Source: Acidobacteriota bacterium (GTDB lineage: Bacteria > Acidobacteriota > Thermoanaerobaculia > Multivoradales > UBA5704). Taken from it: a DNA stretch of 64,000 nt. The position numbers and the translations under genes are program-made. Position 1 is the stretch's first letter. Every line of letters starts with the position of its first letter. This document shows, one piece after another, positions 10,559 through 58,952 of the stretch. The DNA lies in the NCBI GenBank assembly GCA_040005235.1, contig JBDTZG010000028.1:6940-70939 (forward strand), read 5' to 3'. The notes under the pieces were generated by a model. It was not told the DNA's origin, searched no databases, and saw only the letters and a program-made list of their open reading frames with translations.

Positions 10559-13369
10559 ATGAAGTTCCTTCGTACCCTCGGCCTCGTCGCGGGGCTCGCT
10601 TGGCTCGGTTCGGCAACCCTGTCGGCCCAAACCACCGGTTCGATCGTCGGCCGGGTGATCGACGAGAGCGGCGCGCCGCTGCCGGGGACCGCGGTCGAAG
10701 CGACCAGTCCGTCGCTCCAAGGAACGCGCTCTGCGACCGCCGACGCCAACGGCGACTACCGCCTGACCCTCCTGCCACCGGGCAGTTACACCGTGACCGC
10801 GAACCTCCAAGGTTTCGCACCCGAATCGCGCCAGGCTGTGGCCGTGGGGCTCGACAAAGGAACGACGATCGATCTGGCGCTCCGGGTGACGGCGTCCGAC
10901 GAGATCACCGTGACCGGCGAAGCGCCGGTGATCGACTCGACCTCGACCACCCTCGGTACCAGCCTCGACATCCGCGCCATCCAGACCCTCCCCACGGCGC
11001 GCAACTATTCGTCGGTGGTGCAGATCACCCCTGGCGCCTCCTCTGACGCTAACCCGGAAAACCAGGGGCAGACGACGATCTCGGTCTACGGCTCTTCCGG
11101 TGCCGAAAACGTCTTCTACATCGACGGCGTGAACACCACAGGGGTCGAATACGGCTTCCAGGGCAAGGAGCTGAACTTCGAGTTCATCGAGGCGATCGAC
11201 GTGAAGACCGGCGGATACCAGGCGGAGTTCGGCCGCGCGACCGGCGGGGTGATCAACGTCGTCACCAAATCGGGCGGCAACGAATTTCATGGCGATCTGT
11301 TCGGCTACCTGGATAACGACTCGCTCCAGTCGAGTCCCGACCCGATCGTCTCGACCGGTGGCACGGTCGAAGGCTTCTCGCGGAAAGACTACGGCATCGG
11401 TCTCGGCGGCTTTTTGAAGAAGGACAAGCTCTGGTTCTTCGCTGCCTACGACAAGGTGAGCAACACGCTCACCAGCGCGCTGCCGGCCGGCCCGCGGTCG
11501 GGCCAGGAGGTCGATTCCGACTCCGATCGAAAGCTCGGCGCGGCGAAGGTCACATACCGCTTGACCGAGAGCCAGTCGCTGATCGGCAGTTTCTTCCAGG
11601 ACCCGCGCGAGGACACCGGCGCGATCAACGATTCGAGCCATGCCCTGAACGGCGATCCCGACACCTACACCGGCCGGATCGAGCTGGGAGGCAAGGACTA
11701 TGCCTTGCGCTACCAGGGCATCGTCGCCTCCGAATGGGTTCTCACGGGGCAGGTCGCGCGGCACGAAGAGAAGAACTCCGTGGGTCCGTCGTCCGCCACC
11801 GGCGACACCGTGCAGTTTCGCGACGTGCAGAACGATTTCTTCCAAACCGGTGGCTTCGGCCTGATCCAGGACAAGAACTTCCAACGCGATCATGCCGGCG
11901 CCACTGCCGCGCGCTTCCTCGGCCGGCACGACCTGAAGCTCGGATTCGAGTACGAAAAGGAAAAGGCCGACGTGATCCGCCGCCAGTCGGGCGGCCAGTT
12001 GGTGGACGTCTTCCAGAATCCGTTGAACCCGAACCGGCCGATCTACCAGCACCACTACTGGACGACGCCGGACGCGACGGTCGCCAACGCACCCCTGGGC
12101 CAGCTCACGGCATCGCCGGAGCACAAGAACACCACCCTCTACTTGCAAGACGGCTGGTCGGTGCGGCCGAACCTGACGGTCAACCTCGGCGTGCGCTGGG
12201 ATCGCCAGCAGATCGTCGACGCCGAAGGCACCCAGCAGATCGACTTGAAGAAGGACTACGCGCCGCGCCTCGGCTTCGTCTGGGACCCGACCGCCGATAA
12301 CAAGAGCAAGGTATTCGGATCGTACGGGCGCTATTACGAGCAATTGCCGATGGACCTGGTGATCCGCTCGTTCTCATTCGAGCGCCAGCCGCGGATCGTC
12401 AACTTTTCGCCCACCGACATCCATCCGGATGCGGTGGCGGAAGGGATCTTGGGGACCGATTCGGCGATCCTCGGCGGATTCACCGAGCCGTCGGATCCGA
12501 ACATCAAGGGCCAGTACCTGACCGAGGTGCTGCTGGGCGGCGAGCGCGAGGTGATGCCCGACGTGGCGGTCGGCGCGAAGCTCATTTACCGCAAGTACGA
12601 CCGGGTGATCGAGGATTTCCTCTGCGCCGATGACGGCACCTACTGCATCGGCAACCCGGGAGAGGGTTTCTTCAAACAGGTGTTCACGCTCGACTATTCG
12701 CGCACCCTGCCGGCGCCGAAGCCGAAGCGGGAGTACAAAGGCGTTCAGCTCGACGTGACCAAGCGCTTCTCGAAGAATTGGCAGGCGCTCGCCTCGTACC
12801 TCTACTCGAAGCTCGACGGCAACTTCGACGGCGAATACGCGCCGTTCACCAACGTCGGCGCTGACCCGAATATCTCGGCCGCCTACGACTACTTCGACTT
12901 CTTCACCAACGGCAGCGACCTCACCCGCATCACCAACAAAGGTCCCCTGTCGAACGAACGACGTCACCAGTTCAAACTGTCGGGCATCTACCTCACCCCC
13001 TGGAATCTCCAGGTCGGCGCCTCGGCCTACTACCGCTCGGGCACTCCCCTCACCCGCTACGGCTACTCCGACGCCTATGGCCGCTACGAGTTCTTCCTCA
13101 CCCCGCGCGGCGGCGAAGGACGAGGCCCGGCGACCTACGAGGCCGATCTCCACTTCGGCTACCCGGTGAAGGCAGGACCCACGACGATCAACCTGCTGCT
13201 CGACGTTTTCAACGCCCTGAACGCCCAAAAGCCGATTCTGCTCGACCAGCGTTGGGGCTTCCAGGAGTCCGACAACACCCTGCCCAACCCGACCAATCCG
13301 GGCTACGGAAAACCGGTGCTGCGCACCGCCCCGACGTCGTTCCGAGTGGGTGTGAGGGTGAGCTTTTAA
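10559..13369 (+). CDS. TonB-dependent outer-membrane receptor with N-terminal carboxypeptidase-regulatory-like (CarbopepD) domain
   Basis: ATG at 10559 follows an aagaggaga RBS. The signal peptide is MKFLRTLGLVAGLAWLGSATLSAQ. The CarbopepD-like region is GSIVGRVIDESGAPLPGTAVEA...DANGDYRL. The plug/barrel region has the YGSSGAENVFYIDGV TonB-box-like segment. The C-terminal residue is aromatic (…RVGVRVSF), as expected for a beta-barrel. Confidence 0.9.
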   Translation: MKFLRTLGLVAGLAWLGSATLSAQTTGSIVGRVIDESGAPLPGTAVEATSPSLQGTRSATADANGDYRLTLLPPGSYTVTANLQGFAPESRQAVAVGLDKGTTIDLALRVTASDEITVTGEAPVIDSTSTTLGTSLDIRAIQTLPTARNYSSVVQITPGASSDANPENQGQTTISVYGSSGAENVFYIDGVNTTGVEYGFQGKELNFEFIEAIDVKTGGYQAEFGRATGGVINVVTKSGGNEFHGDLFGYLDNDSLQSSPDPIVSTGGTVEGFSRKDYGIGLGGFLKKDKLWFFAAYDKVSNTLTSALPAGPRSGQEVDSDSDRKLGAAKVTYRLTESQSLIGSFFQDPREDTGAINDSSHALNGDPDTYTGRIELGGKDYALRYQGIVASEWVLTGQVARHEEKNSVGPSSATGDTVQFRDVQNDFFQTGGFGLIQDKNFQRDHAGATAARFLGRHDLKLGFEYEKEKADVIRRQSGGQLVDVFQNPLNPNRPIYQHHYWTTPDATVANAPLGQLTASPEHKNTTLYLQDGWSVRPNLTVNLGVRWDRQQIVDAEGTQQIDLKKDYAPRLGFVWDPTADNKSKVFGSYGRYYEQLPMDLVIRSFSFERQPRIVNFSPTDIHPDAVAEGILGTDSAILGGFTEPSDPNIKGQYLTEVLLGGEREVMPDVAVGAKLIYRKYDRVIEDFLCADDGTYCIGNPGEGFFKQVFTLDYSRTLPAPKPKREYKGVQLDVTKRFSKNWQALASYLYSKLDGNFDGEYAPFTNVGADPNISAAYDYFDFFTNGSDLTRITNKGPLSNERRHQFKLSGIYLTPWNLQVGASAYYRSGTPLTRYGYSDAYGRYEFFLTPRGGEGRGPATYEADLHFGYPVKAGPTTINLLLDVFNALNAQKPILLDQRWGFQESDNTLPNPTNPGYGKPVLRTAPTSFRVGVRVSF

Positions 13370-22384: not shown

Positions 22385-23209
22385 CTACTCATTCGGGTGA
22401 ATGACAGGGAAGGTGATGCCGAACACGCTGTAAGCAACCTCCTGTTCGGTAGTCCATAGGCGATGGTCGATGCCTCGGTATTCGATAACGAACGGAATTC
22501 GTAGAGACCTCGGGCCCTGCGACGGCATGGGTACCTCTAATAGCGCGCGCTGGAGCGATGCGTTAAAGTTGCTGACGTTTTCATGAATGAACTCGCCAGG
22601 CTGGAGGCTTTGGAAAGGTCCTCTCACCAATGAGCTGCGGTCGCCGATACTGATCTTGGGTATATTGATGTTAACTGCTGACGCGAGACCAAGATTCACA
22701 ATGCGGACTCTCTCCACGGTGTACTCTTGGCCGGTCTCTTCGTGCTCGACTGCTTCGCGAAAATATTCGTCTATAACTACCCAGGGCCTCTGAGGCATCG
22801 TGACTATCGTTCCAGGAGCTCGGCTATCCAGTTCGCTGAGTGCAGTTTCCTCAGCTAATTGTTTCCAGGAGCGTAGGATAGTTTCGGGAAACCGATTTAC
22901 ATCAGAATCGATGAGTTTTGCGCAGGTTTGGCAAAGCCAAATCGCATTTTCTGCAGACTTTCTCTGTGACGCTGTAATTTCTGGATGGTAGCGAGGTCCG
23001 CCTGGAGAAGCGGAAGTGATATGAGCTGCCACGCCAACATTGATCACACCGTTCCCAAGGAGAGCTGGGCCGCAGGTTTGTTTTCGGCACTTTTCATTCG
23101 AACAGTGGTTGGCAACGCGGTGAGCCAGTTCTGCTTTGATTTTTGCGCTGAAGTCGTCTCTCATCCGTAGAGCCTCTAGTTCTTTTGTTGATCGAGAGAT
23201 CAGATACAT
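22385..23209 (-). CDS. HNH-motif (Zn-finger nuclease-like) protein, N-terminal HNH domain + ~170-aa unknown C-terminal domain
   Basis: It has paired CxxC plus His/Asn: HCSNEKCRKQ...VAAHITSASPGG...NAIWLCQTCAKLID. It lies in a lower-GC island (~52-58%) immediately downstream of and convergent with acs, and directly downstream of the RAYT gene. Confidence 0.55.
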   Translation of the reverse strand: MYLISRSTKELEALRMRDDFSAKIKAELAHRVANHCSNEKCRKQTCGPALLGNGVINVGVAAHITSASPGGPRYHPEITASQRKSAENAIWLCQTCAKLIDSDVNRFPETILRSWKQLAEETALSELDSRAPGTIVTMPQRPWVVIDEYFREAVEHEETGQEYTVERVRIVNLGLASAVNINIPKISIGDRSSLVRGPFQSLQPGEFIHENVSNFNASLQRALLEVPMPSQGPRSLRIPFVIEYRGIDHRLWTTEQEVAYSVFGITFPVIHPNE

Positions 23210-23214
23210 CCACG

Positions 23215-23345
23215 GGCTCCTGGTTTAATTCTTGAAGGGCGAATTTCAAGGGCCGAAGGCCCATCCAATAATAGCCTAGGGCAACGCCCTAGGTTCCCGG
23301 TTCGCGCCCACCCCAAAAGGGCTGAAGGCCCGCACCATCCACCCT
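23215..23345. repeat. REP-like palindromic hairpins (3 units) on the 3' side of the RAYT gene
   Basis: The hairpins are gggccgaaggccc (~23250-23262), cctagggcaacgccctagg (~23275-23293) and gggctgaaggccc (~23329-23341). They have GC-rich stems and are each followed by ...catcc. Confidence 0.7.
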
Positions 23346-23797
23346 TAATCCCACACATACCGCTCATCGTAAGCCACTTTATATTTCGCCAGGAACGCCC
23401 GATATTCCTCCTGGAACGTGCGCGTTCGATGGTGCTCCTCCTGGTTGTCAATGTAGGCCACCAAAGCCTCCAGATCGCCGGGGCCGACAGAGAACACGCC
23501 GTAGCCGCGTTGCCACGCAAAGTTCTGAAGATCGGGCGACTGGGTCTTGAGCCATTTTGAGGAGGAAGTCTTGAGCTCTTCGACGAGGGCGGCAATCGTG
23601 ATCGTTCGAGAAAAGCGAATCGCCATGTGAACATGATCGGCCACGCCTCCGGCGCGATCGCAGAGGCAGCCCGCGTTGCGGGCGACGGTGGCCAAGTAGG
23701 CGTGTAGCGGTGTGCGGATCGTCGGTCCTATATATGCATAACGGTCCTTCGTGCTAAAGATCAGGTGAAGGACGACGTTGGCTAGCGATTGTGGCAT
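23345..23797 (-). CDS. tnpA: IS200/IS605-family Y1 (HUH) transposase, REP-associated tyrosine transposase (RAYT)-like
   Basis: 150 aa. It has the HUH motif HVHMAI and the catalytic Tyr context YIDNQEEHH. The size and motifs are typical of TnpA(IS200)/RAYT. It is flanked on both sides by inverted REP hairpins. Confidence 0.85.
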   Translation of the reverse strand: MPQSLANVVLHLIFSTKDRYAYIGPTIRTPLHAYLATVARNAGCLCDRAGGVADHVHMAIRFSRTITIAALVEELKTSSSKWLKTQSPDLQNFAWQRGYGVFSVGPGDLEALVAYIDNQEEHHRTRTFQEEYRAFLAKYKVAYDERYVWD

Positions 23798-23799
23798 GG

Positions 23800-23905
23800 T
23801 GAGTTAGGGCGGACTTTCAGTCCTTGGTGGGGTGCCAAACGGTCCTGTCCTGGGGCGTTGCCCCAGGCTTTTATAGGTTCGCGCCTTTGGCGCTGGCGGG
23901 ATCGT
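23800..23905. repeat. REP-like palindromic hairpins on the 5' side of the RAYT gene (inverted orientation)
   Basis: The hairpins are cctggggcgttgccccagg (~23849-23867), whose core is the reverse complement of the gggcaacgccc hairpin on the other side, and gcgcctttggcgc (~23881-23893). A ggtgccaaa motif is repeated at ~23831 and ~23966. Confidence 0.65.
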
Positions 23906-24046: not shown

Positions 24047-24592
24047 ATGATCAACGTGAAGCCTTGGTTCCGCCGCACGGTCTTGATTCTCGGTAGCGCG
24101 ATTCCTGTCAGTTTCGCCATTGGCTTTCTCGGCCATGGCGAATTTCCCGTGACGCATGTTGCGGTCCAGGCACTGGTAGTTGGTGGGTTCGTCTTTCTGG
24201 TCGTTGGCGGCGTGCTTCCCGCTACGCTGGCACGAGGGAAGAGCAGTGTCCTTCGATCGGGGCTGGTGTGTCTCGTCGCCGCGTTGCTCGTTTTTCCGGC
24301 GGCGCGGCTCGCCTGGCGCATCGACCTCTTCCGGTTCGACCGCTACGTTCGCCGCGAGCTGACTACGAAGCTCGAATCGACCCGCGCCGCACGGGGCGAA
24401 TATCCGGAAAGTTTATCCGCCCTCGGCTTACCCTCCGCAGCGAGTCCCTGGCTCTTGAAGCGAAGCGGTTTTGTACCGAAAGGAGGAGGCTTCACGATCT
24501 CGGTAATGGACCCGGGGGTTTGCGGACACCTACTGACCTACGATTCCGTTAGCACTCGTTGGGCCGAGTCGTGGGAGTCGTGCTGGTTCTGA
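24047..24592 (+). CDS. Hypothetical small membrane protein
   Basis: 181 aa with 3-4 predicted TM helices (VLILGSAIPVSFAIGFLG, ALVVGGFVFLVVGGVLPA, LVCLVAALLVFPAA). Intermediate GC. No recognisable family. Confidence 0.45.
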   Translation: MINVKPWFRRTVLILGSAIPVSFAIGFLGHGEFPVTHVAVQALVVGGFVFLVVGGVLPATLARGKSSVLRSGLVCLVAALLVFPAARLAWRIDLFRFDRYVRRELTTKLESTRAARGEYPESLSALGLPSAASPWLLKRSGFVPKGGGFTISVMDPGVCGHLLTYDSVSTRWAESWESCWF

Positions 24593-24711: not shown

Positions 24712-26853
24712 ATGAGCCCGTTTTCGAAGTCTGGCGCGGTGATCGCCGCTTTTGCGGTGGCCGCGGTCACGGCCACCCACGCGCAGGCGTCCTCACCCGC
24801 TGCCGCTGCCCCCACCCCCTTCGCCGCCCTCTACCAGGCGATCGGGAATCCCAAGATCGACGCCTCCATGCCCGCCCCGGCGCGCCTGATGATCGGCCGG
24901 GCGGAGATTCGTCCCGCGGCAGGCGCCCAACTCTGGCGGATGGTGGCGAATGGCCGTCCTTGCGGGGTGATGCTGGACGGTCCGGCGGTTTGGAGCTACC
25001 GGGTGGAGGATCGGTTCTCGCAGCCGATCGCCAAGCGGAATGCTCGGCGGGGATCGAAGTTGGAGGCAAAGGACGAGGACGGCGTGCTGGTGTTGAGCGG
25101 GAACCTTCGCGGGGTGGCGATCTGGAGTTGGTCGATCGCTTCGGAGTTGAGCTCGGCGGGGGCGACGGAGTGGCATGCTGGAGAGTCTCGGAAGCTCCCC
25201 GAGTGGGCGACGGATCGGTTGTCGCATCGCCTGTCGGCGAATCCCGCGCGCGACCTTCTTTTGAGCGACGGCAACGGCGATCCGCGGTATGCCTGGACAC
25301 TGCTTCATGGCGACAAGGTCGACTACGTGCTCGATTGGGATGCTCGGACGACCGTGGCGAGCGAATCGTTGTCGCGGGCGGAAACCGAGCCGCTCGCCAG
25401 CGAATACCGCGGGCGGTGGAGTGACGTCGAGATCGCAGCCCAGCCGATCGGCCGCTCTTGGTGGGATGCGCCCGGCGCGCTCGAATGGGTGAGCGTCGCG
25501 ACCGACCTCGACGTGAAGGAGCAGCCGGGAGACCGGGCGCGAGTGGCGAGCCGGGTGCGGATGGAGGCGAAGGCGCCGGGGCTCAAGGTGCTCGCCCTGG
25601 CGCTTCTCTCCGAGACGGCGAACAGCGCGGGCTCGCTCCGTCCGGCGACGCTCGAAAAGGTGACGATCGCCGGCCAGCCGGCCGACTACGTGATGGACCG
25701 CAACCACCTGTTGATCGCTCTGCCGCAGCCGGTGGCCAAGGGGGGAACCGTCGAGGTCGAGACGGTCTGGTCGGGCGAGTTGCTCGCCCGGCCGAACGGC
25801 GATAGCTATTGGCGGGTGGGCGGCATTCCTTGGTACCCCATGCCGGTCGGGGCGGGGAGCGCGCCGGCTTCGAGCTTTCACGTCGCGCTCGAAGTGCGGA
25901 AGCCGTTCGTCCCCTTCGCGCCCGGCAAGACCCTCGAACGGACCGAGACGGCGGAGACGAACAAGGTTGTCACCGAGCTGGCGGGGCCGATGTCGATCGC
26001 CTACATCGGCGCCGGAAAATACGCGACCGGCACCACGACCGAGGGGGATTTCAAGATCGGGATCTCGACCTACGGCGCCCGATTGCCGGGCGAGCTGGAG
26101 CACGCGGGCGAGATCGTCCTGGGCTCTCGACGGTGCCTGACCGACCTGTTGGCCGAGCCCTATCCGTTCGCCGAGCTGCACGTGCTCGAAGTGAACGAGT
26201 GGGGCTGGGGCCAGGCGCCCCCGGGGATGATCTTCATCACCAAAGAGGCTTTCTTGAGCAAGGCGCGGCTGCGGGCGATGAAGACCCAGCAGGGTCTCGC
26301 GCGCGCCATGGTCGCGAACGTCGATGCCCGAATCACCCACGAGGTGGCGCACGGTTGGTTTCCCCACGTGGCGCAGATCAACGATTCCGAGGACGCCTGG
26401 CTGTCGGAGAGCTTCGCGGAGTACGTCTCCTCCGTCTGCGTCAGCCTGCTCGCCTCGGGAGCGCGCGAGCGCGACGCCGCCTGGCAGTTCCAGCTCACGC
26501 AGTGGAAAGAGCTGGTCCGCTCGCTCGGCGATGAGCCCGCGGCGAGCGTCTTCTCCGCGAATCGCATCCCCATCGCCTCGGGCGAAGATTTCGCGATGCG
26601 CCGGGCACTCCTCTACGGCAAGGGGCCGCTCGTCCTCCACGCCTTGCGGCAAGAGCTGGAACGCCAGGCCGGCAACCAGGCCGACGGCGATCGCTTGTTC
26701 TTCAACTGGTTGCGCCGCATCCTCCACGACCACCGGTTCGCGATCACCCACACCCAGGACATCGTTGCGATTCTCGAAGAGATGACCGGCAAGCCATGGC
26801 GCCCGTGGTTCGAGAAATATATTTACAACAGCGACATCCCCAAAATCGACTGA
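24712..26853 (+). CDS. M1-family zinc metallopeptidase (aminopeptidase N-like), secreted
   Basis: The signal peptide is MSPFSKSGAVIAAFAVAAVTATHAQA. The HExxH-x18-E gluzincin signature is ITHEVAHGWFPHVAQINDSEDAWLSESFAEY. aaggga RBS. Confidence 0.8.
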   Translation: MSPFSKSGAVIAAFAVAAVTATHAQASSPAAAAPTPFAALYQAIGNPKIDASMPAPARLMIGRAEIRPAAGAQLWRMVANGRPCGVMLDGPAVWSYRVEDRFSQPIAKRNARRGSKLEAKDEDGVLVLSGNLRGVAIWSWSIASELSSAGATEWHAGESRKLPEWATDRLSHRLSANPARDLLLSDGNGDPRYAWTLLHGDKVDYVLDWDARTTVASESLSRAETEPLASEYRGRWSDVEIAAQPIGRSWWDAPGALEWVSVATDLDVKEQPGDRARVASRVRMEAKAPGLKVLALALLSETANSAGSLRPATLEKVTIAGQPADYVMDRNHLLIALPQPVAKGGTVEVETVWSGELLARPNGDSYWRVGGIPWYPMPVGAGSAPASSFHVALEVRKPFVPFAPGKTLERTETAETNKVVTELAGPMSIAYIGAGKYATGTTTEGDFKIGISTYGARLPGELEHAGEIVLGSRRCLTDLLAEPYPFAELHVLEVNEWGWGQAPPGMIFITKEAFLSKARLRAMKTQQGLARAMVANVDARITHEVAHGWFPHVAQINDSEDAWLSESFAEYVSSVCVSLLASGARERDAAWQFQLTQWKELVRSLGDEPAASVFSANRIPIASGEDFAMRRALLYGKGPLVLHALRQELERQAGNQADGDRLFFNWLRRILHDHRFAITHTQDIVAILEEMTGKPWRPWFEKYIYNSDIPKID

Positions 26854-26870: not shown

Positions 26871-27356
26871 ATGACCTCGACCCTGCGCACCGGTGCGATT
26901 GGCGCCATGCTTGACGAATACGATCGAGCTGCGGCGGAGCTGTACCGCCTGATCGAAAGCCTTCCGGAAGCGGACTATCTGCGGATTGACCCCAAGGTCA
27001 CCGACGAAGACGGCCGGTCCGTCCAGACGATCATGTCTCACGTCGTGGGCGCCGGATACAGCTACGCCTTCTACATCCGCCAAGCGCTCGGGATGGAAGC
27101 CGCGCGGCCCGCCCGCCCGCTGTTGTCTCAAACCGAGGTGCTCTCCGGTTTCCAGGCGATGCTCGCCCACACCGCCCAATCGTTGGAGGGTCGGTGGGAG
27201 ATGCCCTACGAAGAAATGGAGAGCATCGCGATCCAATCCCGGTGGGGGCCGACCTACAACCTCGAACAGATGCTGGAGCACGCGATCGTCCACATCCTGC
27301 GGCACCGCCGGCAGATCGAGAAGATGGGGTTGGGGGCGGCGGCGCCAAAGGCGTGA
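26871..27356 (+). CDS. DinB_2/DUF664 family protein (second copy)
   Basis: ATG after a gagaggagaa RBS. The His motifs are MSHVVGAGYSYAFY ... LEHAIVHILRHRRQIEK. 161 aa. Confidence 0.6.
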   Translation: MTSTLRTGAIGAMLDEYDRAAAELYRLIESLPEADYLRIDPKVTDEDGRSVQTIMSHVVGAGYSYAFYIRQALGMEAARPARPLLSQTEVLSGFQAMLAHTAQSLEGRWEMPYEEMESIAIQSRWGPTYNLEQMLEHAIVHILRHRRQIEKMGLGAAAPKA

Positions 27357-27369
27357 AGACGCCTGAGCT

Positions 27370-28071
27370 TTGCAGGCATCGGGTTCGAATTTCATGTCAC
27401 CGTCCAACTTCCCTGCCACCGGTTTCGCACTCGTTCCGGAGGTCTTCTCCGCTGCGGAGTGCGAAACGCTCGCCGCGCTTGCACAGCCCTCGGATGGCGC
27501 TTCCCGAGGAACCCGCAGCCTCCTCCAGCAGCCGTGGTGCGCAGCGCTGGCGGAGCGCCTCCGGGCGCACCCGGTGCTGTCGGCTCTGATCCCGGCTGAT
27601 CTCGCGGCCGTTCAGTGTACATACTTCGAGAAATCGGCCGCGCGCAATTGGCTGGTTCCGTTCCACCAAGACTTGAGTATTCCGGTGGCCGAACGGGTCG
27701 AGGCTCCAGGGCTTCGGGGCTGGTCTAAGAAGGAGGGTGGCCTGTTCGTTCAGCCGCCTGTTACGCTTCTGGAGCAGATGCTCGCGGTTCGGCTCCATCT
27801 CGATGCGTGCTCGGAGAACGATGGTCCGCTGCGGGTCGTTCCGGGTTCTCACCTGGAGGGTCGCCTCGAACCGGAAGGGGCTGCGCGCGCACGGGCGCAC
27901 GGAACGGAAGTCGCGTGTATCGCGGACGCGGGCGCGGCGGTCGTTCTCCGGCCTCTTCTCCTACACGCATCCTCGAAGGCCACCGGCGAGAGTCGTCGTC
28001 GCGTGCTGCATTTCGTCTTTGGCCCCCGCGAGCTGCCGTTTGGCCTCCGTTGGCCGATTTCCACGCCGTAA
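27370..28071 (+). CDS. Phytanoyl-CoA dioxygenase (PhyH) family Fe(II)/2OG oxygenase
   Basis: It has the HxD...H facial triad context (VPFHQDLS ... DGPLRVVPGSHL) typical of the PhyH family. The alternative start is at 27394. Confidence 0.7.
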   Translation: MQASGSNFMSPSNFPATGFALVPEVFSAAECETLAALAQPSDGASRGTRSLLQQPWCAALAERLRAHPVLSALIPADLAAVQCTYFEKSAARNWLVPFHQDLSIPVAERVEAPGLRGWSKKEGGLFVQPPVTLLEQMLAVRLHLDACSENDGPLRVVPGSHLEGRLEPEGAARARAHGTEVACIADAGAAVVLRPLLLHASSKATGESRRRVLHFVFGPRELPFGLRWPISTP

Positions 28072-28149
28072 CGTCGCTCTCGGCGACCGCAGTTGCTGAT
28101 GGCTCGGCGCGCTGCAAACTCCGGCGCGGATAGCGGCTATTCGGCGTTT

Positions 28150-28485
28150 TTACGCGGCTCCGCGCTCCAAAGCGGGAGAACAGCTAACGTCAACTCTGAC
28201 TCCGGCGCGAGCGAGCATGTCGACCAGGGAGTCGCTGCTAAAGAGATCGACTCGTCCTCGCACCAGGTCGCTGATCCGAGGTTGGGTGACGCCGAACAAC
28301 TGCGCGGCCTTGATCTGCGTCAGCTTGCGATCCTGCATCAGCTTGCGAATCGTGAACATCAACGACGAGCGTAATTCGAGATGCGCCGCTTCCTCCGCTC
28401 CGAAGCCTAGATCCAAGAAAACGTTGCCGCTCGAAGGTGTGATTTCACTCATGCGGAGCGGCTTCATTGGCAGAGAACTATACAA
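28150..28485 (-). CDS. XRE-family HTH protein, HigA-like antitoxin-type (solitary)
   Basis: The N-terminal NVFLDLGF motif plus the HTH LTQIKAAQLFGVTQPRISDLVRG are typical of HigA-like antidotes. Length is ~100 aa if the start is at the third Met (28452). GC is lower (~58%). No toxin ORF is adjacent. Confidence 0.6.
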   Translation of the reverse strand: MYSSLPMKPLRMSEITPSSGNVFLDLGFGAEEAAHLELRSSLMFTIRKLMQDRKLTQIKAAQLFGVTQPRISDLVRGRVDLFSSDSLVDMLARAGVRVDVSCSPALERGAA

Positions 28486-28689
28486 GCTTCAGTATGCCGC
28501 ACCAAGCGAGGCGCCACGCGCGCTTCAAAGATAACCGGCAAGTCCACATCCTGCGGCACCGTCGGCAGGTCGAGAAGATAGCCGCTGTCTCCACGCCGTA
28601 ACGTCGCTCTCGGCGACCGCAGTTGCTGATGCCTCGGCGGGCTGCGAAATCCGGTGCGGAAAGCGGCTATCCGGCGCGTAAAGCCGATT

Positions 28690-29010
28690 GCGGAGCCCGA
28701 TTGCCGGATTCGGGAGTTGAACCGCGTGTTTTGCGACGGCAAGCCGCGTTTCGGGACCGCATTCGCGGTTCTGGGACCGCAAGCCGCTTCCTGAGACGGA
28801 TAGCCGCTTCCTGGGACTTCTCGCCGCTTTCTGGGACGGATAGCCGCTTCCTGGGACTTCTCGCCGCTTCCTGGGACGGATAGCCGCTTCCTGGGACCTC
28901 TCTCCGCTTCCTGGGACGGATAGCCGCTTCCTGGGACTTCAAGCCGCTTCCTGGGACGGATAGCGACTTCCTGGGACAGATCGCGGAGTTTCGGGACGGC
29001 TACGCGCTTT
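28690..29010. repeat. Tandem direct repeat array: ~12-15 copies of a 15-bp core gccgcttcctgggac (degenerate at the 5' edge) separated by 5-6 nt, with an overall ~40-bp super-period ggatagccgcttcctgggacttctcgccgcttcctgggac
   Basis: This is read directly from the sequence. The spacers alternate ggatag / ttctcg / ctctct / ttcaag. The array lies between the 3' end of the ABC exporter gene and the 5' side of the XRE gene. Confidence 0.85.
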
Positions 29011-29059
29011 CCGCGGCGCGGAGCCGACTGCGGCGACTTTTCTCCGTGATTCCTGACCG

Positions 29060-30850
29060 TTAACTCGCCACGGCCAATTCTGCAGGCCGGGGGAGCGCGG
29101 GAACCATCGTCGGCCGCCGTTCGCCGATCTGCTGGCGCCACATGGCGAAGTAGAGACCTTTCAAGGCGAGCAGCTCGTCATGGCGGCCCGATTCGACGAT
29201 CCGGCCGTGTTCCAGGACGTGGATGCGGTCGGCGTGCATGATGGTCGAAAGCCGGTGGGCGATCAGGATCGTGATGACCTGGCTCGACGCCACCTCGCGG
29301 ATCGTGTCGGTGATCTCTTCCTCGGTCAGCGAATCGAGCGACGAGGTCGCCTCGTCGAACACCAGCAGGCGCGGTCGGCGGAGAAGAGCGCGAGCGATCG
29401 ACAGCCGCTGCTTTTCGCCGCCGGAGACTTTGACGCCCCCTTCGCCGATCACCGTGTCGAGACCGCGGTCGGCGCGCGCGAGCAGGCTTTCGCAGGCCGC
29501 TTTGTGGAGGACTTCCAGGCACTCGTCGTCGGTCGCATCCGGATTCACGAACAGCAGATTCTCGCGGATCGATCCGGAGAACAGCTGGGTGTCCTGGGTG
29601 ACGAAGCCGATCTGTACCCGCAGTTCGTCGAGGTCGATCTCTTCGCCCGACTTGCCGTTGTAGAGGACCCGTCCCCGGCCCGGGGAGTAGAGACCGACCA
29701 GCAGCTTGACCAGCGTCGTCTTGCCCGAGCCGGAAGGGCCGACGAATGCAGCGGTCTCTCCCCGGTGCAGCGAGAACGAGATGTCGGAGAGCGCCGGGGC
29801 GGACGCGGTCTGGTGGGTGAAGCCGACGTTTTCGAAGTCGAGAGTGGTGAGCTGGCCCAAAGGAAGCGGATTCACCGGCTTCGCCTCGATCGGGGTGGCG
29901 AGCACGGTCTGGAACATCTCGAGCGACGCTTCCGTCTCGCGGTAGGTGTTGATCACCGTCCCCAGCTCCTGGAGCGGGCCGAAGATGAAGAAGGAGTAGA
30001 TGAACAGCGAGAAGAACTGCCCGACCGTGATCTGCTGGGTAAAGATCAGGTAGAGCATCAAGAACAGGATTGAGGTCCGCATCGCGTTGACCAGCGTCCC
30101 CTGGATGAAGCTCAACAGGCGGAGCGATTTAACCTTCTTGAGCTCCAGCTGGAGGATCTTCGCGGTCGTCGCATTCAGCCGGCCGATCTCTTGCCGCGCG
30201 AGGCCCAGGCTTTTGACCAGCTCGATGTTGCGCAGCGATTCGGTGGTCGCCCCGGCGAGCGCCGTAGTCTCGGCGACGATCACCTTCTGGATCTTCTTGA
30301 TCCGTTTCGACAGCACCGAACTCAAGATCCCGATCAACGGCACGGTGAGCAGATAGACCGGCGCGATGATCCAGTGCACGCTCGCGGCGTAGATCATCAC
30401 GAAGACCACGCCGACTAGCGTCGTGAACAACAGGTTGACCGCGATCGCGATCAGCTTTTCCACGTCCGACCGCACCTTCTGGAGACGTCCGAGCGTCTCG
30501 CCGCTCCGCTGGTCTTCAAACAGCGAGTAAGGCAGCTCCAGCGAATGGCGGACGCCGTCCGAATAGAGATCGGCACCGACCCGCTGAGTGACGACGTTGA
30601 CGAAATAGTCCTGGAAGTTCTTGGCCACGCGCGACACGAACGCCACACCGACCGCCGCGGCGAGCAGGAGCGACACGCCGCGGAAGAACTGCTCGGTGGT
30701 GTACTCGGAGTAACGAGTGGCGTATTCGTCGATGACGTGACGAAAAATCAGGGGATCGAGCAGAGAGAAGACCTGATTGATCGCCGCCAGCACCAGGGCG
30801 AGCACCACCAGACCCCAGTAGCGACGGAGGTAGGAGTAGAGAAGTTTCAT
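29060..30850 (-). CDS. ABC transporter, fused transmembrane + ATPase (type I exporter, MsbA/ABCB-like)
   Basis: 596 aa. The six-TM domain is followed by Walker A GPSGSGKTT, the ABC signature VSGGEKQRLSIARA and Walker B LLVFDEATSSLD. Confidence 0.9.
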   Translation of the reverse strand: MKLLYSYLRRYWGLVVLALVLAAINQVFSLLDPLIFRHVIDEYATRYSEYTTEQFFRGVSLLLAAAVGVAFVSRVAKNFQDYFVNVVTQRVGADLYSDGVRHSLELPYSLFEDQRSGETLGRLQKVRSDVEKLIAIAVNLLFTTLVGVVFVMIYAASVHWIIAPVYLLTVPLIGILSSVLSKRIKKIQKVIVAETTALAGATTESLRNIELVKSLGLARQEIGRLNATTAKILQLELKKVKSLRLLSFIQGTLVNAMRTSILFLMLYLIFTQQITVGQFFSLFIYSFFIFGPLQELGTVINTYRETEASLEMFQTVLATPIEAKPVNPLPLGQLTTLDFENVGFTHQTASAPALSDISFSLHRGETAAFVGPSGSGKTTLVKLLVGLYSPGRGRVLYNGKSGEEIDLDELRVQIGFVTQDTQLFSGSIRENLLFVNPDATDDECLEVLHKAACESLLARADRGLDTVIGEGGVKVSGGEKQRLSIARALLRRPRLLVFDEATSSLDSLTEEEITDTIREVASSQVITILIAHRLSTIMHADRIHVLEHGRIVESGRHDELLALKGLYFAMWRQQIGERRPTMVPALPRPAELAVAS

Positions 30851-30952: not shown

Positions 30953-31561
30953 TCAGGCGAGGTCATTCTCGCCTCCGATCACGAAGAGCTTCAGCTGGGA
31001 GGCGATGCGCGCGACAAAGGAGTCGTTGCGGGCGCGCTTGCCGCGCCATTCCGCGCGCGTCATCACGGTGGGATGGACCGGCCGGGAGAGGTGAGCCTCC
31101 GTAGGTTCGAGGGCGGCAAAGACATCGGCGTATTCTAGGTCGTCGCTCAATACCAGAAGGTCGAGATCGCTGTGAGCCCGGTCGCTCCCCTTCGCGAGTG
31201 AGCCATAGACGAAGGCTGCCGCAATGCGACGGCTGAGCGGTTCGAGGGCGGCGCGGATCGGCTCGACGATTCCGACGGTCTTTTCGACCAAGCCACGCAG
31301 CTCCGGGAAGATCGGCGACTTCGGGTCGGCCTGGTAGTACTTTTGATTTCCCGCGTGGGTGGCGAGGACGAGGCCGCTCGCTTCGAGTCTTTGGAGCTGA
31401 CGATGCACGGCGCCGGTGCCGCTGTCGGCGAGGCGAATCAGCTCGGCGCTCTGGAATCGCCTTTCGGGTTGTCCGAAGAGAAGGCCCAACACCCGCTGTT
31501 GAACCGGGGTGAACAGCGCTGCGGCGAGCCCGCTATCGGTGTTTTCTACGACCGTTCCCAT
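30953..31561 (-). CDS. Winged-HTH (MarR/ArsR-like) + nucleotidyltransferase-domain fusion protein
   Basis: The start is at the internal Met (MGTVVENTDSG...). The wHTH is QQRVLGLLFGQPERRFQSAELIRLADSGTGAVHRQLQRLEASGLV. The NTase motif is VYGSLAKGSDRAHSDLDLLVL. It is encoded immediately downstream of ftsZ on the same strand. Confidence 0.65.
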   Translation of the reverse strand: MGTVVENTDSGLAAALFTPVQQRVLGLLFGQPERRFQSAELIRLADSGTGAVHRQLQRLEASGLVLATHAGNQKYYQADPKSPIFPELRGLVEKTVGIVEPIRAALEPLSRRIAAAFVYGSLAKGSDRAHSDLDLLVLSDDLEYADVFAALEPTEAHLSRPVHPTVMTRAEWRGKRARNDSFVARIASQLKLFVIGGENDLA

Positions 31562-31700
31562 AATGGGAATGATCCTACCCGAATTGGGAACGATTGTCGT
31601 CCCGCGACTCAACAACCGACACCCGCCCGCTTCCGGCCCCAAGGGGGTTAAGGCCGGGGGGCGGACGGGTGTCGCACTGCGGAACCTACGTTTCCTGCGG

Positions 31701-58619: not shown

Positions 58620-58952
58620 CTACTGGCCGCAGCGACCCTCTGGGTCGACGACGCAACCCGCGTCGCGAAGGATCGGCGCCGGGGCACTCGACGAACCGCA
58701 GCGGCCGTAGGGATCGAGGCTGCAGCCCACGTCGCTGAGGATCGGCACCGGGGCGCTCGACGGGCCGCGGCCGCCGTGGGGGTCGAGGCTGCAGCCCTCC
58801 TCCTCCCAGAGGGCCGAAAGAAACGACCAGCCGCGGGCGAACAGGTCGGGGAGGGTGCGATCGAGCGGCAAGGCGCCGGCCGGGAAGGCACTGAGGAGGA
58901 AGAGGGCTAGCAGAGCGACGGCGAGGGCGAGGTGACGCTTCGGTTGGGGCAT
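58620..58952 (-). CDS. Small secreted Cys-repeat peptide (precursor), paralog 2
   Basis: 110 aa. The signal peptide is MPQPKRHLALAVALLALFLLSAFPAGA. The mature part is LPLDRTLPDLFARGWSFLSALWEEEGCSLDPHGGRG...VGCSLDPYGRCG...AGCVVDPEGRCGQ, i.e. three ~20-aa repeats. It is convergent with the long regulator, whose stop is 7 bp away. Confidence 0.6.
   Translation of the reverse strand: MPQPKRHLALAVALLALFLLSAFPAGALPLDRTLPDLFARGWSFLSALWEEEGCSLDPHGGRGPSSAPVPILSDVGCSLDPYGRCGSSSAPAPILRDAGCVVDPEGRCGQ

Follow-up and report, generated by a model that had tools for sequence, protein, structure and literature searches.

The locus lies within a 64 kb window (the whole stretch of DNA analysed here). On its left, an intact M1-family peptidase gene (24712-26853, + strand; Pfam PF01433) has its orthologue at positions 7842-9983 of L019, a MAG of a sister species that comes from another sample and has ~91% nucleotide identity to the window. 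It is followed by an intact DinB gene, here called copy A (26871-27356, + strand; Pfam DinB/DinB_2, PF05163 with E 2e-7), by a PhyH gene (27394-28071; Pfam PF05721, E 5e-17) and by an XRE gene on the - strand (28150-28467; PF13744). The Pfam matches agree with the identities that a first-pass annotation had given to DinB, PhyH and XRE. An ABC transporter gene (29060-30850, - strand; Pfam) is the conserved right-hand anchor of the locus and is syntenic in the genomes L019, L026 and L027; the exact-protein look-up for this transporter found none on record. Taken jointly, the M1 gene and the body of DinB have 91.2% nucleotide identity between the window and L019. A mosaic test along this stretch gave identities between 81% and 99% and no clear change-point, and dN/dS of DinB copy A against L019 is about 0.15.

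Parts of this gene order occur a second time to the right of XRE. The repeat finder and a gapped self-alignment both identified an 87-nt stretch, the tail, which comprises the last DinB/PhyH codons and downstream sequence (tail copy A, 28060-28146, + strand) and is repeated at 28590-28676 (tail copy B, + strand), where the last codons STP and a stop lead over into the downstream sequence. The two copies are identical in 80 of 87 nucleotides (92%, ungapped); the first 42 nt are the same and all seven mismatches are found in the last 45 nt. Across the 64 kb there are exactly two occurrences of a 41-mer taken from the tail, and 100 dinucleotide-preserving shuffles contained none. Both methods also found that the DinB 3′ fragment at 27288-27325 (+ strand) recurs at 28542-28579 with 36 of 38 nucleotides identical (95%). 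Ten nucleotides, AGCCGCTGTC (28580-28589), separate this second fragment from tail B. A third collinear piece, found with the repeat finder, is the 14-nt AGATGACCGGCAAG from the 3′ end of the M1 peptidase gene (26780-26793), which corresponds to AGATAACCGGCAAG at 28529-28542 (+ strand). The 14-mer, the 38-mer and the 87-nt tail have the same order and strand in copy B as in the intact locus. A duplicated stretch of ~88 bp with ~90% identity, the DinB 3′ end before its second copy and XRE between the copies had all been described in the first-pass annotation, and the self-alignment, the shuffles and the copy positions bear this description out. The positions given were 2-5 nt off, and the DinB fragment does not immediately precede tail B, since AGCCGCTGTC intervenes. 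Tail copy A stops 3 nt short of the XRE stop codon. A terminator-like hairpin with a T-run lies within tail A (28127-28143); the count of such hairpins is not above that in shuffles.

Further right lies a tandem array of ~13 units of 20 bp (28712-29008, without strand assignment; TRF and register print) with the consensus NNNNAGCCGCTTCCTGGGAC and a 40-bp higher-order period. It is present at the same locus in L019 and in the outgroup L026 with differing copy numbers, and soil metagenome contigs also contain the 20-bp unit, in unrelated surroundings. The array is a neighbour of the duplication and lies outside the duplicated part. We also considered the tail as part of a dispersed 20-bp array element and rejected this, because blastn similarity to arrays elsewhere begins only at ~28712, with a faint resemblance at most before that point.

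The GC content near XRE is 0.545-0.605 compared to about 0.65-0.69 in the flanks, which confirms the lower GC noted before. A reading frame of low GC between direct repeats that lie 530 bp from each other and are ~90% identical resembles a small mobile cassette, and a cassette flanked by direct repeats was indeed among the possibilities named in the first-pass annotation. We considered it in the form of a recent insertion downstream of PhyH with the 87-bp repeats as recombination sites (integron-attC-like or similar). The XRE/toxin–antitoxin module does sit at different intergenic sites in related genomes, so that its assignment to an accessory module holds, but the repeats are the coding 3′ ends of DinB plus flank, they are accompanied by further collinear gene fragments, they occur only twice in 64 kb, and the arrangement is shared with L019, a species ~9% diverged. 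Folding of both DNA strands of both tail copies yielded z scores of -1.11, -1.11, +0.10 and +0.19 versus shuffles, that is no significant single-strand structure, and an Rfam search for structured RNAs in 27900-29200 had no hit with an E-value of 1 or less. Inspection by eye for attC core sites found no GTTRRRY/RYYYAAC pair at the repeat ends. The unit and its called neighbours contain no integrase or transposase, and the Pfam gene tables list no tyrosine recombinase within about ±7-10 kb (left side of the window and both sides in L019). On the right side of the window, the ABC transporter and an HTH+nucleotidyltransferase gene (Pfam) are followed by ORFs that match L019 ftsZ/ftsA/ftsQ/murC in length. 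Folding no better than that of shuffles, the presence of two copies only and the nature of the repeat as a gene end led us to reject an integron/attC unit. A transposon or insertion sequence does not fit either: the unit holds XRE only, host gene sequence, 87 nt long, makes up the repeats, and among the inverted repeats reported there are no terminal ones that bound the XRE segment. The inverted 29-nt flanks of the nearby Y1 transposase gene (23345-23797) belong to that gene and are unrelated to the repeats. A mobile cassette is therefore highly improbable.

Comparison with relatives shows how old the arrangement is. L019 and L020, a strain of the same sister species, have the order M1–DinB–XRE–toxin remnant–[M1 3′ end + DinB 5′ end ... 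DinB end–tail]–array–ABC, and copy B of L019 retains 136 nt of M1 3′ end and DinB 5′ end as well as the DinB end and tail. The junction of the XRE upstream region with the M1 3′ fragment, CTTCAA joined to AGAT[G/A]ACCGGCAAG (L019 11045-11073), is identical in the window, L019 and L020. Because this ~9% diverged species holds XRE, both copies and the same junction, the duplication is older than the split of window and L019, and a recent insertion is refuted by the standard that the first-pass annotation had itself set. The outgroup L026 has no XRE and a single DinB remnant, whose end is joined to tail and array. In L027-29 the M1 gene is directly followed by the ABC transporter gene, and L027 has no DinB–tail copy. 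These genomes show that the base layout in this Acidobacteriota group is Acs – M1 peptidase – (DinB) – tail – 20-bp array – ABC transporter – ftsZ. Between Acs and M1, L026 and the window contain a Y1 transposase and no toxin–antitoxin pair. L023, L024 and L025 have the order XRE < Gp49 < promoter > M1, which is the same adjacency as that of XRE, promoter and M1 fragment in copy B. All compared genomes are MAGs or metagenome contigs, and two genomes only carry the duplication.

Since the source is a MAG and short-read graphs branch at the repeat, the contig might have merged a strain with DinB–PhyH–tail–array and another one with XRE–DinB remnant–tail–array. Two Logan assemblies made independently of each other, SRR26386603 and SRR26386604, match the window at 100% identity and both end at 28089. 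A k=31 graph is bound to branch there when two different left contexts lead into the 31-mer that begins at 28060, which argues that the repeat is not produced by the assembly. The two-copy layout with XRE between the copies is also seen in the MAG from the other sample and in an independent Logan assembly of that sister species, and the 9 differences between the copies allow an assembler with k above 42 to thread them. An artefact is thus scarcely credible.

The junction in copy B reveals which DinB end was duplicated. Together with its flanks, AGCCGCTGTC encodes ...EKIAAVSTP followed by a stop, which is the end of the intact DinB in L019 (protein P0001) and of the single DinB remnant in L026. 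Positions 28542-28620 align at 91% identity with L019 10418-10496, where the intact DinB of that genome ends. Because the sequence thereby reads like the DinB 3′ ends that are uninterrupted in L019 and L026, the second piece of copy B (28542-28589, + strand) is the remnant of a PhyH-free allele, termed I-type (...VHILRHRRQVEKIAAV). The earlier view that the DinB end and downstream sequence exist in a second copy, now degraded, is correct; derivation of this copy from a DinB–PhyH segment by internal deletion is not, since the junction is that of an intact DinB end. Copy B as a whole (28529-28676) appears from these alignments to be the remnant of a second M1(3′)–DinB–downstream segment, and its fragments are presumably without function. 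The last ~75 nt of the M1 gene are part of the duplicated unit, which, to judge from the M1 3′ end in L019 copy B, began further left than previously thought, inside the peptidase gene.

In copy A, the DinB 3′ end is interrupted by 734 bp (27326-28059, + strand) that are absent from L019, L020 and L026; by this comparison PhyH is an insertion present only in the window. The inserted DNA provides a new DinB C-terminus with stop, a 37-bp spacer and PhyH, which uses the old DinB codons STP and stop as its own end. Among species-representative genomes the nearest PhyH homologues are at most 67% identical and located at non-syntenic loci in other phyla, the best being from a Pedosphaera MAG; they are therefore of no use for the history of the locus. 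Their distribution identifies PhyH as an accessory gene. No PhyH scar was detected in L019 copy B by tblastn. A short, weak nucleotide resemblance of L019 copy B to the whole PhyH insert is reached by 74 of 2000 shuffles, and that to the last 35 nt of the insert by 124 of 2000. A metagenome scan with the 21-mer of the I-type junction gave no match.

XRE belongs to the HTH_37 antitoxins (PF13744, E 1.8e-22, residues 22-95) and is 98% identical in amino acids to the L019 and 95% to the L023 XRE. In L023, L024 and L025, which are more distant than L019, the orthologue directly follows an intact 110-aa Gp49 gene (PF05973, E 5e-22). This indicates that XRE is the antitoxin once paired with a Gp49 toxin of the RelE/ParE type. 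According to a three-way alignment of the module, five toxin codons are all that is left in the window: the XRE reading frame opens with MKPLR (28467-28453), which continues in frame into the original start, MSEIT (28452). As there is also no other Gp49 homologue in the window, the locus is a derivative of a Gp49/HTH_37 module and not a complete member. The L019 toxin gene carries an ATG>ATA change and a 192-nt frameshifting deletion and retains residues 1-13 and 78-110 in different frames. The toxin was thus destroyed independently in two lineages, in the window by a 334-bp deletion that fused its first five codons in frame to XRE. A dN/dS of ~0.09 indicates that XRE is under purifying selection, and its present role is probably that of an orphan antitoxin or repressor with autoregulation. 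The region ahead of the former operon (28468-28528, - strand) is conserved: positions 28453-28496 are 91% identical to L023, L024 and L025, and 28453-28546 are 87% identical to L019. It contains an imperfect palindrome (28479-28494, window + strand TATACAAGCTTCAGTA) and, in our own reading of the hexamers, a possible promoter, TTGGTG (28505-28500) and TATAGT (28482-28477) with a 17 nt spacer; a consensus promoter scan found none by its criteria in this region. Exact-protein look-ups of XRE with three alternative starts found none on record. Solved structures for the Gp49 toxin were not found, and the antitoxin matches only 2a6c and 2o38, both structural-genomics entries, therefore we do not call XRE HigA2-like.

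We consider it likely that the repeats are pseudogene debris of an old duplication, next to a toxin–antitoxin pair that lost its toxin, and not the ends of an element. Collinear fragments, a longer second copy in L019, one copy in L026 and none in L027 are the features of a decayed segmental duplication. The ancestor of window and L019 carried a block consisting of XRE, Gp49, the promoter region and a second M1–DinB–tail directly downstream of the first M1–DinB. Most of the second M1 gene was then deleted, and the resulting junction is common to both species. Copy B then decayed, once they had split, through deletions that differ between the lineages, and XRE itself was kept under purifying selection.

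Tail B next to the array is the ancestral arrangement, as suggested by the orthologous 87-nt tails that adjoin the array in L019 and L026. Orthologous array-side tails show about 73-78% identity, compared to 92% between tails A and B of the window. Tail A of the window shares 60% identity with its L019 counterpart and 71-73% with the tails beside the array in L019 and L026; it was overwritten from tail B after the two species had separated. The DinB ends suggest an exchange as well. Copy A of the window has an M-type 3′ end (...EKMGLGAAAPKA and stop). Its homology to L019 copy A ends exactly at 27325, positions 27313-27334 match L019 copy B (11190-11211), and its junction, GAGAAGAT joined to GGGGTTGGG, is found in L019 copy B. 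The M-type and I-type alleles thus occupy opposite copies in the two species, which points to a reciprocal exchange between direct repeats (loop-out and re-integration) or to allelic replacement. Deletions or one-way gene conversion were rejected on logical grounds, because either would remove one allele, as was unequal sister exchange, for which the reversed order needs several extra steps. The swap requires one crossover within about 20-30 nt of homology; this is short for RecA-mediated exchange and counts against our reconstruction. A bolder reading is that the orphan-antitoxin segment with one flanking repeat is a recombinase-free, RecA-dependent loop-out/loop-in unit that was actually excised and re-integrated. 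Such a unit would explain why PhyH-type and PhyH-free DinB ends are found in opposite copies of sister species, and it would move accessory DNA such as PhyH between copies or related genomes; we regard its existence as doubtful.

Under the preferred reading as an old, decaying duplication, the second copy would have come in with the toxin–antitoxin pair by homology-anchored recombination, either by Campbell-type integration of a circularised fragment or by homology-facilitated illegitimate recombination. The presumed donor would be a relative that, like L023, has the pair immediately upstream of M1. Window and L019 do not share the boundary between copy A and the XRE 3′ flank: L019 has ~38 nt similar to the native flank of XRE in L023, and in the window the tail continues to 3 nt from the XRE stop. 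One more event must be assumed to account for this difference. In addition, the dS of XRE is lower, at 0.10 compared to 0.18-0.28, with only 7 synonymous differences. This could reflect a more recent exchange of the module and also counts against the reconstruction.

The L019 junction, DinB stop plus ~30 nt followed by sequence resembling the native XRE 3′ flank of L023, is also the joint expected from a tandem duplication. Without any foreign DNA, an ancestral Acs–XRE–Gp49–M1–DinB–tail might have doubled the part from the XRE flank to DinB plus ~20-30 nt, and subsequent losses would have removed the first of the two toxin–antitoxin pairs and the bulk of the second M1. L023-type genomes do contain the required adjacency of toxin–antitoxin pair, promoter and M1. 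In the closest outgroups that share the backbone (L026, L027-29), however, there is no pair between Acs and M1, so that several extra losses are needed, and the swapped alleles are not explained by this model alone. In-situ duplication is for these reasons the less probable origin, though one to be taken seriously.

The main value of the case is that a cassette-like pattern with direct repeats turned into a decaying duplication once three or four related genomes were compared. It also documents a stepwise, lineage-specific death of a toxin gene with the antitoxin held under selection, which bears on studies of toxin–antitoxin decay. For annotation it is of use because the XRE gene should be named an orphan HTH_37 antitoxin.

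Altogether, the locus is an ordinary scar of genome evolution that reveals no new mechanism. Toxin–antitoxin cassettes are frequent in chromosomal integrons. Like an integron gene cassette, the unit is a short ORF between similar ~90-bp repeats, but its repeat is an unstructured gene end present in two copies, with no integrase among the neighbours. Single-crossover (Campbell-type) integration or homology-facilitated illegitimate recombination leaves an insert framed by direct repeats of the homologous chromosomal segment, and such copies later undergo gene conversion and deletion. The insert in the window is framed in the same way; different are the inferred donor, the lack of a vector, phage or integrase, and the insert itself, which comprises only a module of two genes and a second copy of the genes next to it. 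Pairs of Gp49 (PF05973, RelE/ParE superfamily) and HTH_37 (PF13744, HigA-like) are a described type II system in which the toxin gene comes first (PMC7157771). The window XRE is an HTH_37 protein, and its 95% identical orthologue in L023, L024 and L025 follows Gp49 in this same order, whereas the window has no toxin apart from the five codons fused to the antitoxin. Orphan antitoxins are common in surveyed genomes (PMC7192599). As in those, the toxin was deleted and the antitoxin retains its frame, its upstream region and purifying selection; here, however, sister lineages ruined the toxin by different lesions, and the fusion in the window is exact and in frame with the toxin start codon.

The genes for an M1-family peptidase (M1, 24712-26853), a DinB protein (26871-27356) and a PhyH dioxygenase (27394-28071) lie on the plus strand and are followed on the minus strand by the HTH_37/XRE gene (28150-28467). 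Gene fragments spanning about 200 bp separate XRE from a tandem array of 20-bp units (~28712-29008), which precedes the stop codon of an ABC transporter gene (29060-30850, minus strand). Repeat finder and gapped self-alignment confirmed both repeats reported in the first-pass annotation, the tail of approximately 88 bp (tail A, 28060-28146, and tail B, 28590-28676; 80/87 identical, ungapped, with the first 42 nt identical) and the DinB 3′ end (27288-27325 and 28542-28579; 36/38 identical). The repeat finder also revealed a third collinear piece: 14 nt of the M1 3′ end (26780-26793) are repeated at 28529-28542, touching the DinB fragment. Thus, the degraded second copy (copy B), consisting of M1 3′ end, DinB 3′ end, 10 nt and tail B, has the order and strand of the intact genes (copy A). 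A 41-mer of the tail occurs twice in the window and was not found in 100 shuffles. Two Logan assemblies, each from a separate run, match the window at 100% identity and both terminate at 28089, the final position before the 31-mer starting at 28060 gains two possible predecessors. The reads therefore hold two left contexts for the tail, and independent data bear out the repeat.

A search with DinB yielded one close relative (P0001, 90% amino acid identity) on a 189-kb MAG contig of a sister species (L019, GCA_038250865.1); a second strain, L020, is 99.7% identical to L019. The backbones of window and L019 are 91-92% identical, with a synonymous divergence (dS) of 0.18-0.28. In L019 the order is M1, DinB, 58 nt, XRE (minus strand), a toxin remnant, a degraded second copy, the 20-bp array and the ABC transporter; PhyH is absent. 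The second copy opens with 136 nt covering the 3′ end of M1, the spacer and the 5′ end of DinB, and continues with the DinB 3′ end and the tail. Together with the M1 14-mer of the window this shows that the duplicated unit began inside M1, farther left than had been proposed. The junction between the region upstream of the toxin-antitoxin genes and the M1 3′ fragment (…CGCGCGCTTCAA/AGAT[G/A]ACCGGCAAG…) is identical in both genomes. Because of this common junction, the duplication is older than the split of the two species, and a recent insertion, as suggested earlier, does not hold. More distant relatives show the base layout: three (L027-29) have Acs (an acetyl-CoA-synthetase-like gene), M1, 215 bp, ABC transporter and ftsZ without any insertion, and L021 carries a different XRE pairing. 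Only the window and L019 thus carry the duplication with XRE between its copies.

The intact DinB of L019 terminates with …HILRHRRQIEKIAAVSTP and a stop, and copy B of the window reads …HILRHRRQVEKIAAVSTP and a stop from the DinB fragment through the 10 nt AGCCGCTGTC into the tail start (28542-28620 versus L019 10418-10496, 91% identical). An outgroup (L026, GCA_038248205.1; M1 79% amino acid identity) keeps just one DinB remnant, which has an internal deletion and the same uninterrupted (I-type) end (GAGAAGATAGCCGCTGTCTCC…), then an 87-nt tail and the array; XRE and second copy are both absent from this locus. Since L019 and L026 share the DinB end of copy B, the adjacency of I-type DinB end, tail and array is ancestral. 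Copy B is thus the PhyH-free allele that keeps this adjacency and not, as first read, the product of an internal deletion of PhyH. In copy A the DinB end is broken after GAGAAGAT by 734 bp (27326-28059), which give DinB a different C-terminus (MGLGAAAPKA and stop) and bring in a spacer as well as PhyH, and PhyH ends on the former DinB codons STP and stop. Homology of L019 copy A to the window ends precisely at 27325, the left edge of this extra DNA. The nearest PhyH homologues are at most 67% identical and come from other phyla with unrelated neighbourhoods.

The copies decayed differently. Compared to an intact copy, 494 bp are missing from copy B of the window between M1 14-mer and DinB 3′ end, and approximately 400 bp inside DinB from that of L019. 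Window tails A and B are 92% identical and ungapped, whereas the orthologous array-side tails are just 73-78% identical and the two A tails 60%. In L019, tail A matches over its first ~30 nt only and then resembles the native XRE 3′ flank of L023, a relative with an intact toxin-antitoxin pair. Window tail A was thus replaced by tail B sequence once the species had split, through gene conversion or a template switch with its endpoint 3 nt from the XRE stop. At its end, tail A carries a terminator-like hairpin with T-run (CGGATAGCGGCTATTCG GCGTTTTT; 28127-28143, plus strand), situated where PhyH and XRE converge; the hairpin stem holds two of the seven A/B differences, and the T-run is missing from tail B. 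Terminator-like sites are no more numerous than in shuffles.

The interrupted (M-type) end (GAGAAGAT/GGGGTTGGG…) is located in copy A in the window and in copy B in L019, and the I-type end in copy B and copy A, respectively. Deletions or one-way conversion were ruled out as origin of this swap, since each would lose one allele. It therefore needs reciprocal exchange between direct repeats, with the XRE segment and one copy looping out and re-entering elsewhere, or allelic replacement from other members of the population. The most economical history that could be built has six steps. The I-type end would be ancestral, as in L026, and the resident copy would have gained the M-type/PhyH end. A block of XRE, Gp49 toxin gene, promoter, M1 and I-type DinB might then have been joined by homology from a relative with L023-like placement. 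Subsequently, most of the second M1 would have been deleted, a deletion common to both genomes, before the swap in L019 and the tail conversion in the window. The main alternative to this history is tandem duplication in situ.

For the tail, neither a folding signal nor an Rfam match was found, it is present in only two copies, no recombinase was seen among neighbouring genes, and the inverted flanks of a Y1 transposase nearby (IS200/IS605 type) are unrelated to the tail. Integron-cassette, transposon and artefact readings were therefore rejected, and with them the small mobile cassette suggested initially. From the original proposal, the duplication remnant and the position of XRE between its copies stand; a loss of PhyH, which entered copy A by insertion instead, does not, nor do the extent, age and cassette nature. 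The locus is an ordinary evolutionary scar, though nicely resolved.

Several further features were observed nearby. The Y1 gene (23345-23797, minus strand) is bounded by inverted 29-nt sequences, each palindromic (23265-23293 and 23849-23877), which is how REP-associated tyrosine transposases are laid out; L026 has a Y1 transposase at the same site between Acs and M1, and L019/L020 keep flank remnants only. Two ORFs without Pfam hit at this site (22385-23209, minus strand, 274 aa; 24047-24592, plus strand, 181 aa) appear absent from L019/L020: L020 matches short stretches only, and the L019 gene table is empty there. The array (28712-29008; TRF rows 28771-29009) has ~13 units NNNNAGCCGCTTCCTGGGAC, in which alternating GGAT/TTCT heads give a 40-bp period. 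It is present with differing unit numbers in L019 (11380-11690) and L026 (9400-9620), and in unrelated contexts in soil metagenome contigs (L031, L033, L034/L038, L037, L043): next to cation-efflux and PIN genes, a DapD-like gene or a DUF4351 gene, and in an hsdM–hsdS interval. The array seems to belong to a dispersed family of non-coding repeats. In relatives without DinB and array, the M1–ABC spacer (L027 9115-9330; L023 1-140, reverse strand) carries a different repeat type, G/C-run palindromes (e.g., CCTCCCCCACAAGGGGGGAGG, CCCTTCCCCCCTTGTGGGGGAAGG). Between ABC transporter and ftsZ, which are directly adjacent in L019, L026 and L027, the window has an inserted gene (30953-31642, minus strand). 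Its product of 229 aa combines a winged-helix region at the N-terminus, with weak hits to MarR/ArsR, and a nucleotidyltransferase domain, for which the hit is MntA-like and also weak; a HepT-like partner is not apparent. Positions 58653-58797 comprise 2.1 tandem copies of a 69-bp unit with 84% matches.

The XRE protein belongs to HTH_37. In three metagenome contigs (L023-25) its orthologue, 95% identical, directly follows an intact 110-aa Gp49 gene (PF05973, E 5e-22), and the pair lies between Acs and M1 with transcription directed away from M1. In L021 (GCA_031396975.1, 7735-8644) the XRE orthologue (90% amino acid identity) also sits between Acs and M1, but there it overlaps a gene for DUF2442 rather than coming after Gp49, and a PIN-domain gene adjoins; this looks like a partner exchange within the toxin-antitoxin module at the same site. 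The L019 toxin starts with ATA, and residues 1-13 and 78-110 remain in different frames around a 192-nt internal deletion. The window has lost 334 bp, from toxin codon 6 through the base preceding the XRE start, and the resulting fusion (ATG AAG CCG CTC CGC/ATG AGT…) places MKPLR in frame with XRE. The upstream region is kept and may contain a promoter (TTGGTG and TATAGT with a 17-nt spacer) as well as an imperfect palindrome (28479-28494); a consensus scan reported no promoter there. No other Gp49 homologues were found in the 64-kb window. Window and L019 XRE differ in 2 of 100 residues (dN/dS ~0.09). The dS of XRE (28150-28452 versus L019 10536-10838) is 0.10, below M1 and DinB (0.28) and ABC (0.18), which may reflect a more recent module exchange or codon constraints, in a small sample of seven differences. 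Pairs of Gp49 and HTH_37 have been described as RelE/ParE–HigA-type, the toxin being encoded first (PMC7157771). Orphan antitoxins are common (PMC7192599), and by its sequence the XRE of the window appears to be one, maintained from a decayed toxin-antitoxin pair.
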